DNA of 64,000 nucleotides from Thermoplasmata archaeon. Lineage in GTDB: Archaea > Thermoplasmatota > Thermoplasmata > RBG-16-68-12 > JAJISG01. The translations under genes and the position numbers were made by a program. The notes below the pieces were generated by a model. That model was not told where the DNA came from and did no database searches. It was given only the letters and a program-made list of their open reading frames with translations. Location of the stretch: contig JBHHZZ010000005.1 of the NCBI GenBank assembly GCA_046758325.1, positions 150 through 64,149 on the forward strand, given 5' to 3'. How positions within the stretch are numbered: position 1 is the first letter of the stretch; each line of letters starts with the position of its first letter. Positions 16,498 to 52,093 of the stretch are shown piece by piece.

Positions 16498-16504
16498 TTA
16501 TAAG
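16498..16504 (+). promoter_or_regulatory. TATA-like box (TTATAAG) with BRE-like CAAAGGC upstream
   Basis: About 55 nt upstream of the ATG at 16558. Confidence 0.35.
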
Positions 16505-16515
16505 CACACTATACG

Positions 16516-16532
16516 CTACAGCTACGCTGTAG
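16516..16532. promoter_or_regulatory. inverted repeat CTACAGC-TAC-GCTGTAG between the TATA box and the start codon (candidate operator)
   Basis: Perfect 7-bp arms read directly. It overlaps the expected transcription start. Confidence 0.35.
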
Positions 16533-16557
16533 ATACTTCAGAACGGAGGTATGACGT

Positions 16558-17277
16558 ATGGGAGAGATTAGAACGGCAATCCCGGATCGGATCGACAAGT
16601 ACCTGGATTCCCTAGTCCGGACTGGTCCTTTCGCCAGCAAGGCGGAGCTCGTGAGGGCCGCCCTCGTGGCCTTTGCAGGAGTAGCGGGGCCGATTGCGCA
16701 AGACTTCGACAAGGAGAACATGATTTCCCCAGACGGGAGGATATATCAGCTGGAATACGCCAGGGAGGGGTCGATGCGGGGGGCCCCCGGGGTGGGAATT
16801 GCACACGACGATGGCGTCCTTCTGGTGGGGGTTACCTCACCAGTGCCTAAGCTTGTGAAGACGCCGGAAAAGATCAAACGTATAGGGGAACGCGTGGCAA
16901 TGCTGTCGTCAGGCATCGTATCAGATGCTCGCATGCTGGCACATCGTGTGCGAGTAGCGGACCCAAAGACTACCGACGAGTTGGTGGACCGATTAGCGGA
17001 GTTCTACTGGGACCATACGATAGACCGAACGAAACGACCACTATGCGTAGCCCTTCTGGTAGCGAGTGCCTTGGATGGCGATGCCAGGCTCCTGGAATTC
17101 GATCCGAGTGGTGCGGTCTTGGAGGGGAACGCTGCCGCCATCGGAGAGGACTGCAAGAGTGTGCGGGAATTCCTGGAGAAGCGATACCGCCGAGGGTCGG
17201 CGAAGGAGGCAGAGGACCTCGCCCTGGAGGCCCTGGGCAAGCCTGAGACCTACGATGTCGTTCACGTGACGGCCTGA
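16558..17277 (+). CDS. ribbon-helix-helix domain fused to a proteasome alpha-subunit-like (Ntn-hydrolase fold) domain
   Basis: Residues 1-48 'IRTAIPDRIDKYLDSLVRTGPFASKAELVRAALVAF' are a classic RHH. Residues ~55-239 align by eye with archaeal PsmA ('ISPDGRIYQLEYAREG...GVLLVGV...SGIVSDARML...DARLLEFDPSGAV...AAIGEDCKSVREFLEKRY'). Confidence 0.7.
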   Translation: MGEIRTAIPDRIDKYLDSLVRTGPFASKAELVRAALVAFAGVAGPIAQDFDKENMISPDGRIYQLEYAREGSMRGAPGVGIAHDDGVLLVGVTSPVPKLVKTPEKIKRIGERVAMLSSGIVSDARMLAHRVRVADPKTTDELVDRLAEFYWDHTIDRTKRPLCVALLVASALDGDARLLEFDPSGAVLEGNAAAIGEDCKSVREFLEKRYRRGSAKEAEDLALEALGKPETYDVVHVTA

Positions 17278-17343: not shown

Positions 17344-18292
17344 GTGTCGGGCAAGGAACGGGCTCGGGAGCGGTTCCCTGCTGCTCCGGGCAGAGTCTTT
17401 GACCGAAACATCCTTCTCCTGGTTGCGAGCGGCGCGCTCTTCAGCATCCCCATAGGCTTCACCTTCGTCGCAATCCCCATCTACCTTGAGCGACTTCCCG
17501 GAATTCCTACCGCCCTGATCGGCCTCTTCTTCACGACTATGGGACTCGTCGCCGTCGCCTTCATTGTGCCTATCGGCATCCTGGCGGACCGGTTCGGCAG
17601 GCGACTCATGCTCGCCCTTGGGGGCGTCTTCGCCTCGACTGCGATCCTCCTCCTGGCATTTCTCGACACCCTGGAGGGACTGCTGGCAGTTGCAGCAGTC
17701 ATCGGTTTGGCCGAAGCCCTCTACTTCTCCACGTGGAACGCCCTCTTGGCCGACGCGAGTACTGGCGAGACCCGGACCAGTGTCTTCGGCTTCAGCTTCT
17801 TCGCAACCTCTGTCGCCTTCGCGGCAGGCAGCGTCCTCGGCGTGGTAGCCGACCGGGCCTTTCAAGGAGGGGCCTCGCCCCAGGATGCATACCAGCCTCT
17901 GTTCCTCGTCATCGGCCTCTCGCTCCTCCTGGTTCCCGCTATCGTACCGTTCGTTCGTCTTGATCGCCGTTTCCATCCTGTACGTAGCCCGCAACGCCCT
18001 GATGAACATGACATGGCCTGTGATGTCTTCCTTCCTCATGGGGGCCGTGGACCCGGACGAGAGGGCTGCTGCGAGTGCCGTCACCGGAGCCGCCTTTCGG
18101 CTGCCCTTCGCGGTGAGCACGACCCTCGGCTCTTACATGCTCACCCTCGATCTCTCGCTGCCCTTCTTCGTTACCGCGCTGCTCTACGGTCTCGGCACAG
18201 CAGCCTTTTGGTACTTCTTCCGCACGTACGGGGCTGTTACCCCAGAACAAGCTGAGGCCGCAGAGGCTGCTGAGATCGTGAGTCCCAAGTAA
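17344..18292 (+). pseudogene. MFS transporter disrupted by a +1 frameshift near 17955-17970
   Basis: The N-half (17344..~17960, 'DRFGRR' MFS motif, 6 TM) continues in frame 2 (ORF 17885..18292, 3-4 TM). The joined product is short (~330 aa). Confidence 0.45.
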
Positions 18293-18809: not shown

Positions 18810-19196
18810 ATGGCTTGGGAACAGGCAGAAGTCAGGGGGCTGAAGCCGAACCGCTATGTGATGATCGGCGACGAGCCCTGCAGGATCATCAACATTACGA
18901 CCAGCAGGCCCGGGAAGCATGGTGAGGCGAAGGCCAGGATAGAGGCCTTCGGGCTCTTTGACGGACAGAAGAGGAGTATGGTGCATCCCGTCACCCACAA
19001 GGTCCGGGTTCCTATCATCGATCGCCGGAAGGCCCAGGTCCTCACTGTAATGGACGACGAGGTCCAGCTCATGGACCTGGAGAACTACGAGACGTTCGAG
19101 CTCCCTATCCCGGAGGGCTTCGACATCAATCTGGAGCCGGGGAAGGAGATCCACTACCTGGTGGCCATGGGAAGGCGGAAGCTCACGAGGCCCTAG
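18810..19196 (+). CDS. eif5a: translation initiation factor 5A (aIF-5A)
   Basis: Hypusine-loop motif 'SRPGKHGEAKARIE' and OB-fold C-terminus. Confidence 0.85.
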   Translation: MAWEQAEVRGLKPNRYVMIGDEPCRIINITTSRPGKHGEAKARIEAFGLFDGQKRSMVHPVTHKVRVPIIDRRKAQVLTVMDDEVQLMDLENYETFELPIPEGFDINLEPGKEIHYLVAMGRRKLTRP

Positions 19197-19201
19197 TCTC
19201 C

Positions 19202-20059
19202 ATGGCGATCGAAAACCTCCTCTTTGCCGATGCCTCCTCCGACGCCGAGGGAAGCCGCGTAGCCATCTTCGGGGTGCCTTTTGACGGGACATCGAGCTAT
19301 CGGGGGGGCTCCCGCTTCGCGCCGAACGCCATTCGCCAGGCCTCCTACAACTTCGAGACCTACCACATGGATTTGGGCGTGGATCTGCAGGACCTTAGCT
19401 TCTGCGATCTTGGCAACCTGGATGAGTTCGGCGCCTCTAGGGCCATGGTCCAGGGGGTGGAGGCCTTCGCCAAGTCCGTGGCATCCCAGAGGAAGCTGAC
19501 AATCATGTTGGGAGGTGAGCACTCCATCACTCCTCCCTGTGTAAGGGCCCACGGTCGCCCAGCCTTCGTGGTTCTAGACGCTCACATGGATTTTCGGAAG
19601 TCCTACTTGGATGACAGGAACAGCCACGCCTGCGTAACCAGGCGGGTAACGGAGCACGTTGGCGTGGATCGGGCCCTCGTAGTCGGCGTCCGCTCCTATT
19701 CAAGCGAGGAAGCAGAGGCGGTGGAGGACATGGGCTTGAGTTACGTCACTTCTTCCGATATCCTAGAGGGCGGCCTGGCAAGCGTGCTGGAGGCCTTCCA
19801 GAACCTTCCTGATGACGTCTACCTGAGCCTTGACATGGACGTGGTCGACCCTGCCTACGCACCAGGTGTGGGCAACCCCGAGCCCTTCGGGGTGACGCCC
19901 CTGCACGTGAAGGAGGTCATCGGAGCCCTCGGGGACAGGATTGTGGGCTTCGACATCACCGAGGTCAGCCCCCCGTGGGACCAGGGGATTACGGCGATCC
20001 TTGCAGCCCGCTTCGTTCGCGAGTTGCTGGCTGTGCTCCAGAGGGCCGATAGGGGTTGA
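19202..20059 (+). CDS. speB: agmatinase (arginase-family ureohydrolase)
   Basis: 'GGEHSIT', 'DAHMD', 'SLDMDVVDPAYAPGVGNPEP' metal-binding motifs. Immediately downstream of aIF-5A, a known archaeal pairing. Confidence 0.85.
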   Translation: MAIENLLFADASSDAEGSRVAIFGVPFDGTSSYRGGSRFAPNAIRQASYNFETYHMDLGVDLQDLSFCDLGNLDEFGASRAMVQGVEAFAKSVASQRKLTIMLGGEHSITPPCVRAHGRPAFVVLDAHMDFRKSYLDDRNSHACVTRRVTEHVGVDRALVVGVRSYSSEEAEAVEDMGLSYVTSSDILEGGLASVLEAFQNLPDDVYLSLDMDVVDPAYAPGVGNPEPFGVTPLHVKEVIGALGDRIVGFDITEVSPPWDQGITAILAARFVRELLAVLQRADRG

Positions 20060-51808: not shown

Positions 51809-52007
51809 CTCATCCTCTTAGGAGGTTTCTCTGGGCACCCTATTTGATTGTTTTTAAGTCGTAATCAAAATCGGGAATCATTTTTCCTGGCTTTTTGACG
51901 TCTTCTAGGGGTACAGAGGTACCCCATCCCCGAAACGTGGATACCTATCGGAGCTGGATTCAAGGTTGGGCGGACAGGTTGACGAAGGCGAGGCCAAGGA
52001 GCACGAG

Positions 52008-52093
52008 AGCCGCCGAAGGGATTCGAACCCTTGACCTACGGTTCTCCCGCTGCGTTACAAGACCGTCGCTCTAACCAGCTGAGCTACGGCGGC
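52008..52093 (-). tRNA. tRNA-Thr (anticodon UGU) with a putative 12-nt intron next to the anticodon loop
   Basis: Hand fold: acceptor GCCGCCG/CGGCGGC, D-arm GCTC..GAGC, anticodon stem ACGGT/ACCGT with 12 extra nt (CGCAGCGGGAGA) after loop CTTGTAA, T-arm AAGGG-TTCGAAT-CCCTT, discriminator U. Confidence 0.65.

Follow-up and report, generated by a model that had tools for sequence, protein, structure and literature searches.

A ribbon-helix-helix-type domain joined to a proteasome alpha-type body in Thermoplasmata, with a conserved array of boxes 11 bp apart at its own promoter

Ribbon-helix-helix (RHH) repressors such as Arc, CopG, MetJ and those of the omega type line up as dimers on DNA, and short sites one helical turn apart are the classical layout for those that act cooperatively. 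The domain can also sit at the N-terminus of an enzyme or sensor body, as in PutA and NikR, where it represses the protein's own operon and, in the case of PutA, co-regulates a transporter. Among proteasome-related proteins, archaeal PAC2 homologues (PbaA/PbaB) are known to dock on alpha rings via tails with an HbYX motif (hydrophobic residue, tyrosine, any residue; PMC3605417), and divergent prokaryotic members of the proteasome-like superfamily have been catalogued by mining sequences for matches in which active-site residues are kept (Fuchs, Alva and Lupas, 2021; PMC8665760). Here we describe a gene from a Thermoplasmata archaeon, located in a 64,000-nucleotide stretch of contig JBHHZZ010000005.1 (hereafter the window), in which an RHH-type domain precedes the body of a 20S proteasome alpha subunit (PsmA). 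The protein resembles those of the catalogue in being a divergent prokaryotic member of the superfamily found by sequence mining. We found no description of an RHH-alpha fusion in the literature searched or in the 2021 catalogue, the text of which has no mention of ribbon, RHH, DNA-binding or Thermoplasmat; a first-pass annotation, made by a model from the letters of the window, had likewise not recognised the architecture among known families. Both halves belong to well-known families, and what is new is their architecture, the conserved candidate operator in front of the gene and the linkage to PAC2 genes. The gene and its two parts are:

16558 to 17277, forward strand: coding sequence of the RHH-proteasome-alpha fusion, 239 amino acids (aa); MFQ5837636.1, labelled 'MAG: peptidase [Thermoplasmata archaeon]' by NCBI

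16558 to 16701, forward strand: RHH-type domain, aa 1-48, with strand EIRTAIP, helix A, a G-x-F-x-S-K-A-E loop and helix B

16705 to 17274, forward strand: proteasome alpha-type body, aa 50-239, with an FDK gate segment, helix H0 and strands S1 to S9; strand S10 and helix H5 are absent and helix H1 is 9 residues shorter

The RHH and alpha parts share one open reading frame (ORF) of 239 aa and are joined without a stop codon or frameshift, as had been proposed. The first-pass annotation had also raised the a priori possibility, for which nothing else speaks, that a stop had been missed and that an assembly or sequencing artefact had made one ORF of a small RHH gene and a truncated psmA. The gene is identical (0 mismatches) in three independent Logan assemblies of separate runs (SRR29324601/2/3), which differ from the window at only two positions, both outside the fusion gene. 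The continuous ORF recurs in more than 70 loci of unrelated samples and in about 107 protein clusters, and a Shine-Dalgarno (SD) sequence and start codon are kept ahead of the RHH part, whereas an internal start signal is absent. An artefact is thereby refuted, the only one of the rival explanations considered here that is ruled out, and the fusion and its conservation are direct observations.

The protein clusters come from a search over 5.8 billion proteins, which returned about 107 full-length clusters (90% identity), all with the RHH domain and with 38-100% identity at a query coverage of 93-100%. Their lengths range from 231 to 297 aa (most 233-253), and every cluster with a named source derives from a Thermoplasmata, Thermoplasmatota or 'Euryarchaeota' metagenome-assembled genome (MAG). 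Canonical PsmAs appear in the same search from E~1e-23 on and cover 66-80% of the query. A degenerate DNA pattern designed on the RHH part only led to 59 metagenome loci, and the alpha body was fused in 59 of the 59, contig permitting. At least nine RHH-alpha loci are present in GTDB species-representative genomes, comprising Thermoplasmata, Methanomassiliicoccales and DHVE2 MAGs; one GTDB-representative locus is in a 'Nitrospirae' MAG that is evidently mis-binned. Homologues with the same fusion, which the first-pass annotation had suggested looking for, are therefore numerous, and nine more distant ones were added by an exhaustive profile search with the RHH part alone. This search gave 76 cluster representatives, consisting of the short type, the nine distant long-type fusions and, as the remainder, stand-alone RHH relatives of 48-80 aa. 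The long-type fusions (244-301 aa, eight of them at least 262 aa) carry Proteasome and Proteasome_A_N as confirmed with Pfam, and most have a longer, more complete C-terminal part. One of them, MFX0097547.1, is annotated as 'proteasome subunit alpha [Candidatus Hodarchaeota archaeon]' and comes from an Asgard MAG. Another, P0407 (276 aa), is encoded on Joint Genome Institute (JGI) contigs L167 and L168 (610 and 622 kb), where Ras/Roc/Arf-type GTPase genes and sparse small ORFs form an Asgard-like context. No proteasome-related neighbour was found in the contexts of the distant long-type genes. Members of the family go by 'peptidase', 'hypothetical protein' or 'proteasome subunit alpha' at NCBI. 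As to carriage by mobile elements, plasmids were found to carry canonical haloarchaeal psmA only.

By its sequence pattern, aa 1-48 reads as a ribbon-helix-helix domain of the ParD/CopG type. Residues R5, G23, F25, K28, E30, L31 and R33 are invariant in the family, and the RHH domain is the best-kept part, mean column identity being 71% in the N-terminal 50 residues versus 53% over the whole protein. The alternating E-I-R-T-A-I-P and the invariant G23 agree with a strand-helix-helix topology. With ParD/CopG repressors (PF03693, PF01402) the fusion shares a strand-helix-helix pattern over about 45 aa, the motif G-x-[YF]-x-S-x-x-E-h-h-R and short gene-proximal repeats one helical turn apart; it differs in that its RHH domain is not a stand-alone protein of 50-90 aa but is joined to a body of about 190 aa and has no toxin partner. 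The description as a textbook RHH holds at the level of the family, since the N-terminal domains of homologues, scanned singly, match RHH_1 in 17 of 23 cases (best E=7.8e-6) and ParD_antitoxin in nine, and one homologue has a precomputed PF01402 match. It does not hold for the window protein alone, which scores below the cut-offs of both NCBIfam ParD (E=0.013, aa 8-36) and Pfam ParD_antitoxin (E=0.25). Compared with ParD structures, the RHH profile aligned weakly (E 0.09-0.3) via G-x-[FY]-x-S-x-x-E-h-h-R. The AlphaFold2 (AF2) monomer model has helices at residues 10-22 and 28-56, and residues 1-9 are coil with a predicted local distance difference test (pLDDT) of 55; the strand, which forms only in a dimer, is left unmodelled. 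A role in defence or in a toxin-antitoxin system was rejected, given that PADLOC returned no match and that no locus has a conserved small toxin-like neighbour.

The closest stand-alone relatives of the RHH domain are 55-74 aa long, and one of them, P0406 (L170-L172), lies amid ORFans together with a 56B_RHH-like gene. A 'Rosetta stone' link was discarded, as P0406, the sole stand-alone RHH whose context was examined, is found among virus-like ORFans and not among proteasome genes. Its virus- or provirus-like setting is a possible source of the RHH domain.

The remainder of the protein is alpha-subunit-like, again as first read. Pfam Proteasome (PF00227) matches aa 75-227 (E=1.4e-21), and the nearest solved structures are archaeal alpha subunits, to which identity is 33-40% over aa 54-227 (A. 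fulgidus 6he5_A, E=8e-28, aa 54-227 on 14-198 of 247). With NCBIfam, the alpha model beats the beta model (121 versus 41 bits). Proteasome_A_N (PF10584) reaches 24.0 bits in the window protein against a cut-off of 27.7, and precomputed PF10584 matches exist for many homologues. The AF2 monomer model (56 homologues, pLDDT 88.3) consists of two N-terminal helices, H0 at residues 58-72 and then an alpha sandwich through S9, and its top Foldseek matches are all alpha chains (1j2p, 1ya7 and 1pma; template modelling scores 0.69-0.72). Model, structural matches and profile scores agree on an alpha-type fold, that is, an N-terminal nucleophile (Ntn) hydrolase sandwich with H0 and with neither a Thr1 active site nor a propeptide. 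The body is reduced, however. Relative to canonical PsmA, 2 residues are gone from the S2-S3 loop and 9 from helix H1, the H4-S9 loop is shortened and the C-terminal ~25-30 residues (S10/H5) are lost, so that a full-length H1, S10 and H5 are lacking. The first-pass annotation had assigned a loss of about 30 residues to the middle of the protein, which this alignment corrects; its reading of FDK in place of the gating YDR was accurate.

Archaeal PsmA (T. acidophilum 1PMA, A. fulgidus 1J2P) and the fusion protein are alike in the Ntn-hydrolase fold with H0, the SPDGR-YQ-EYA segment, the gate cluster and the residues of the HbYX pocket; unlike PsmA, the fusion has a 48-aa RHH domain ahead of the gate segment, and FDK for YDR. 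Residues of H0 and of the alpha-alpha contact are invariant at P58, G60, R61, Y63, Q64, E66, Y67, A68 and E70. Mapping of T. acidophilum residues onto 56 family sequences gave the following conservation:

Y8: F or Y in 56 of 56

D9: D in 56 of 56

P17: P in 56 of 56

G19: window residue G60, invariant

Y26: Y in 56 of 56

G34: G in 52 of 56

K66: K in 54 of 56

G80: G in 56 of 56

L81: L, I, F or V in 52-56 of 56

A154: S in 53 of 56

We take Y8, D9 and Y26 to be the open-gate cluster and assume a functional role for G34 in the same manner. The roles of G19, K66, G80, L81 and the Pro17 loop have been described for the T. acidophilum particle (PMC10349882): in the cryo-EM structure the tyrosine of the HbYX tail forms a hydrogen bond with G19 and packs between L81 and K33, the tail backbone bonds to G80 and V82, and the carboxylate pairs with K66 of the adjacent subunit in a salt bridge. 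As judged from these positions, the alpha body keeps H0, the gate cluster and the residues of the HbYX docking pocket. This pocket forms solely between two subunits of a ring, and the conservation of H0 and of the inter-subunit pocket residues suggests, if indirectly, that the fusion protein forms rings.

Upstream of the start codon the window has the following features:

16498 to 16503, forward strand: TATA-like box TTATAA, read from the sequence, with a purine-rich AAAGGC ahead that resembles a TFB recognition element (BRE); putative promoter element

16511 to 16543, forward strand: candidate operator of three 11-bp units, ATACGCTACAG, CTACGCTGTAG and ATACTTCAGAA, with TAC periodicity; putative protein-binding site

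16516 to 16532, no strand assigned: inverted repeat CTACAGC-TAC-GCTGTAG, centred on box 2, with perfect 7-nt arms (16516-16522 and 16526-16532)

16545 to 16549, forward strand: SD sequence GGAGG, 8 nt ahead of the ATG

16555 to 16559, reverse strand: CGTAT (ATACG in reverse complement), which overlaps the start codon 22 bp past box 3 and may be a fourth box in inverted orientation

The conserved element of this promoter is the array of direct repeats. The TAC cores of the window start at 16512, 16523 and 16534, which is -46, -35 and -24 from the ATG. We compared 46 dereplicated upstream regions (-80 to -11) of homologues with 37-100% identity. Identity at a lag of 11 nt was 0.358 against 0.265 expected (z=10.7 to 12.2); lag 22 followed with z=4.4, no other lag reached z=+2.5, and lags 6, 23 and 24 were depleted (z=-2.5 to -4.0). 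The controls gave no positive signal at lag 11, be it farther upstream (z=0.2), inside the coding sequence (-7.8) or downstream of the gene (-0.5). At least two in-phase boxes are present in 33 of the 46 promoters and three or four in 18, mostly at -46/-35/-24, with the core (A/C)TAC(G/A) and the unit consensus r-A-TAC-(G/A)-y-y-a-w-a. The array lies between the TATA-like box (most related promoters have A/T-rich boxes some 60 nt ahead of the ATG) and the GGAGG at about -13. The pattern TAC-N8-TAC-N8-TAC occurs once in the 64-kb window (0.00 expected by chance), and outside RHH-psmA promoters it has no match on either strand of 591,568 nt of related loci. Tandem Repeats Finder reported nothing at the array, because just 4-5 of the 11 nt per unit are conserved. 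At the Hodarchaeota locus, boxes lie at -47, -35 and -24 (TAC, TCC and TCC). The region upstream of P0407 has a lag-11 identity of 0.43 with TCCA-type boxes and is without the GGAGG/ACGT spacer, and in another distant subfamily the 11-nt array is built on an ATA core. A table of RHH strand residues against box sequence showed no clean pattern of covariation.

The segment between the array and the gene is conserved as well. The start codon encodes the first RHH residue, as the distance to the SD sequence is kept in most related loci. Most family promoters follow the consensus GGAGGnATGRCGT-ATG, which holds an out-of-frame upstream ATG and an inverted copy of the box (CGTAT) and has RCGT directly ahead of the start codon; the inverted fourth box of the window would be in helical phase with the array, although this is speculative. 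The spacer from SD to start, GGAGGTATGACGT-ATG, is the same in the window (16545-16560) and in the Hodarchaeota locus L169 (2871-2887). Such identity across phyla suggests that gene and promoter were transferred horizontally as one, or that another regulatory element is present.

The first-pass annotation had drawn attention to the perfect inverted repeat between the TATA-like box and the start codon as the operator of an autoregulated repressor. The repeat is present at 16516-16532 and is the sole match in the window at up to two mismatches (0.08 expected by chance). Related promoters, however, keep the direct 11-bp array instead, and on reading them (by eye, with no formal test) no comparable palindrome was evident. 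The palindrome was therefore rejected as the operator and, in this organism, results incidentally from the variable parts of units 1 and 2. What stands of the proposal is autoregulation as such, now tied to a conserved box array at the gene's own promoter. Repressors of archaea act between TATA box and SD sequence by promoter occlusion. The fusion protein very probably regulates its own promoter, the obvious candidate for the binder being its own RHH domain; binding of the boxes and repression are what the layout of the array would predict. PutA and NikR would follow the same logic, although the analogy concerns the manner of working only: their bodies are unrelated to the proteasome (proline dehydrogenase and a nickel-binding ACT-like domain, respectively), and the sequence relation is confined to the RHH domain.

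Downstream, the window continues with a transporter gene:

17344 to 18292, forward strand: MFS transporter gene in two reading frames (17344-18255 and 17885-18292), Pfam MFS_1 E=3.4e-24 and 2.6e-5

An MFS gene directly downstream on the same strand is the commonest partner of the fusion, found in eight loci including the window, where it is probably co-transcribed with the fusion gene. Co-regulation is the only explanation that we can offer for the transporter link. At about 316 aa, the MFS gene of the window is some 100 aa short of its counterparts at other loci (389-426 aa); the frameshift or pseudogene is real and not an assembly slip, as it is repeated in the independent run assemblies.

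In a subclade with 37-42% identity to the window protein, the downstream gene belongs to the PAC2 family (PF09754 E=1.9e-44; TIGR00161 E=3e-39). It follows on the same strand after 1-20 nt in six of the six loci of this subclade, L009 (6809-7600), L115, L116, L121, L128 and L143, and the three complete copies end in the HbYX-like VMYG. The arrangement resembles PbaA/PbaB in the PAC2 partner with an HbYX-like M-Y-G tail and in the tail-receiving lysine, which is kept in the fusion, and differs in that the known partners are standard alpha rings (PMC3605417). The literature searched gave no example of an operon that combines a PAC2 gene with a DNA-binding alpha paralogue. The operon context speaks for a fusion protein that is still part of the proteasome system. 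In a soil subclade the fusion gene is surrounded by Fe-S cluster genes.

Farther along the window, an aIF5A gene (PF01287) and, directly after it, a 285-aa ORF occupy 18810-20059 on the forward strand; the ORF is presumably agmatinase/arginase-like, as read from its sequence, and the pairing looks ordinary to us. On the reverse strand, 52007-52093 holds an 87-nt tRNA, called by ARAGORN without an amino acid and with a four-base anticodon gtaa (Rfam tRNA, 65 bits), probably of the intron-containing archaeal type.

Whether the fusion is an accessory paralogue or simply the standard PsmA of its lineage, as the first-pass annotation had allowed, can be approached from scores, gene order, phylogeny and distribution. 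The PsmA models have cut-offs of 219/287, of which family members fall short with 80-190 bits, whereas a canonical high-GC Thermoplasmatota PsmA reaches 309.3 / 296.5; the window protein itself has 114.9 bits with TIGR03633 (cut-off 287.35) and 120.6 with NF003075 (cut-off 219), and neither it nor any tested relative ranks as PsmA by the curated cut-offs. Canonical psmA was found in the exosome-proteasome superoperon PsmA-SBDS-Rrp4-Rrp41-Rrp42-L37ae at two Thermoplasmata-type loci and one Archaeoglobi-like locus, the fusion gene at none of 72 loci. In a neighbour-joining tree of alpha bodies, 100 of 100 bootstraps unite the canonical PsmAs of haloarchaea, Archaeoglobi and Thermoplasmatota to the exclusion of all RHH forms; the latter group in 62 of 100 on long branches, where long-branch effects are possible. 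The family is spread patchily over several orders and into an Asgard MAG. On account of the low PsmA scores, the absence from the superoperon, the tree position and the patchy spread we favour an accessory paralogue. A lineage-wide family does exist, but scores below the cut-offs, gene order and branching outside the canonical proteins make it unlikely that this is the standard PsmA. Compared with archaeal PsmA, the fusion thus differs in its lost H1 residues and S10/H5, its sub-cut-off scores, its outside branching, its absence from the superoperon and its own operator-like promoter.

A canonical PsmA very probably coexists in genomes with the RHH form. The 64-kb window has no second alpha gene and, as the first-pass annotation had stated, no beta gene (tblastn), and none of either kind lies in the 72 loci. 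No MAG with both a canonical PsmA and an RHH form was found, which is uninformative with views of at most 10 kb per gene. Among 120 matches of a Thermoplasmatota PsmA search, none shares a GCA or neighbouring protein accession with an RHH-bearing record, and among the species-representative matches listed there is no canonical PsmA from the same MAG. P0111, the closest canonical match, was rejected as PsmA of the same lineage because it is Archaeoglobi-like. By tetranucleotide composition, an L044-type lineage resembles some RHH contigs (r of at most 0.91), which is no proof of a shared genome. P0283 (MHB8584217.1) and P0332 (MHB8584932.1) are distinct canonical-type 'Thermoplasmatota archaeon' PsmAs with accessions 715 apart, and one MAG may thus have two canonical alpha paralogues.

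Taken together, we regard it as probable, by a modest measure, that the fusion is a self-repressing, ring-forming accessory alpha paralogue whose gate N-terminus is extended by an RHH domain. In the mechanism that goes with this reading, the alpha body would oligomerise into an alpha-type ring, and the RHH domains on the N-termini converging at the pore would pair into dimers. These dimers would bind the three 11-bp-spaced (A/C)TAC(G/A) boxes in a row along the same face of the DNA at their own promoter and block transcription initiation, repressing the gene itself together with the co-transcribed gene (MFS here, PAC2 in another subclade). As the HbYX pockets are kept, docking of PAC2, PAN or Cdc48-type partners, or a larger assembly, could alter the number of free RHH domains, and expression would thereby be coupled to the assembly state. 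Both ring formation and this coupling are extrapolated from conserved residues and promoter layout. Three boxes would use six of the seven RHH domains of a ring, an attractive match that is an argument from geometry alone. That the ring also sits on beta rings is possible, although we lean towards the contrary, and a particle in which RHH-alpha rings cap beta rings, giving a 20S gate with sequence-specific DNA-binding domains that is tethered to defined sites in promoters or reports assembly directly to transcription, seems rather unlikely. If it were true, the three boxes spaced by 11 bp would match three RHH dimers of one seven-membered ring, and such 20S particles would occur in these archaea, including Asgard relatives of eukaryotes.

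Several points weigh against a self-repressing ring. The RHH profile score of the window protein is weak, and the AF2 monomer, modelled without the N-terminal strand, lends no support to the domain, as is expected for a monomer. RHH domains come in pairs whereas a heptamer is odd, so that ring geometry and DNA binding may conflict, and it could be another factor that occupies the boxes. The H1/H2 side of an alpha subunit faces the beta ring. The shortening of H1 and the loss of S10/H5 may therefore impair beta-ring contact in the short type, and because of these same losses the body may have ceased to act as an alpha subunit. The linkage to MFS has no obvious proteasome connection, that to PAC2 is limited to one subclade, and coexistence with a canonical PsmA in one genome is deduced from indirect evidence. 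Overall, the reading is drawn from sequence and a monomer model.

The reductions of the short type, which is without S10, H5 and 9 residues of H1, would also suit a pure transcription factor made from a retired proteasome subunit, whose body has left all proteasome-type complexes and serves just to oligomerise the RHH domain, perhaps with detection of a ligand or peptide by way of its former pockets, and which regulates itself and the neighbouring transporter. Scores far under the PsmA cut-offs, long branches, an RHH domain that is better conserved than the alpha body and the MFS transporter as the commonest downstream partner (eight loci) point the same way. The combination of RHH-alpha and MFS resembles the layout of RHH-enzyme autoregulators of the PutA-putP type, and this likeness adds to the case. 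A mere scaffold, however, needs none of the nearly invariant residues with proteasome-specific roles (K66, G19, G80, L81 and the gate cluster), one subclade shares its operon with an HbYX-tailed PAC2 chaperone, and most long-type relatives have a more complete alpha body; we consider this explanation unlikely. Retention of the residues of alpha-ring function is what one would expect if a Thermoplasmatota lineage had replaced its standard PsmA by the fusion, with the RHH domain as a gate or regulatory appendage of a housekeeping 20S proteasome. No second alpha gene lies in the 64-kb window or in the flanks of the 72 loci and no canonical PsmA could be assigned to an RHH-bearing MAG, yet these absences tell little, as the searches fell short of whole genomes. 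Against a sole alpha subunit, typical canonical Thermoplasmatota PsmAs exist (one with 309 bits, two others with loci in the superoperon), and the RHH forms branch outside all canonical PsmAs and not within those of Thermoplasmatota. They are also patchy in Methanomassiliicoccales, DHVE2, Thermoplasmata and Hodarchaeota MAGs, and a self-repressing promoter and fast divergence would be unusual for an essential housekeeping subunit, all of which renders replacement distinctly improbable.

The RHH-like domain might also not bind DNA at all and serve as a protein-protein module, antitoxin-like or as a pore plug, with another regulator on the boxes. Its closest profiles are those of ParD antitoxins, whose RHH region also serves in protein complexes, and near-invariance would suit a protein interface just as well. 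But ParD-type RHH domains are established to bind operator DNA themselves, the box array accompanies the gene from one phylum to another and is absent elsewhere in 592 kb, and no toxin-like or other conserved regulator gene lies alongside (PADLOC again being without a match), so that we hold a domain without DNA binding to be highly improbable.

Few proteins of archaea and eukaryotes are as conserved and as well studied as proteasome alpha subunits, whose N-termini make up the protease gate. A DNA-binding domain at this gate would link regulated proteolysis or ring assembly with transcription, which are not known to be joined in archaea, and the widespread family offers a simple system in which to test whether a structural subunit signals its state of assembly to its own promoter. 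With a member in a Hodarchaeota MAG, it is relevant to the diversification of alpha subunits before eukaryotes.

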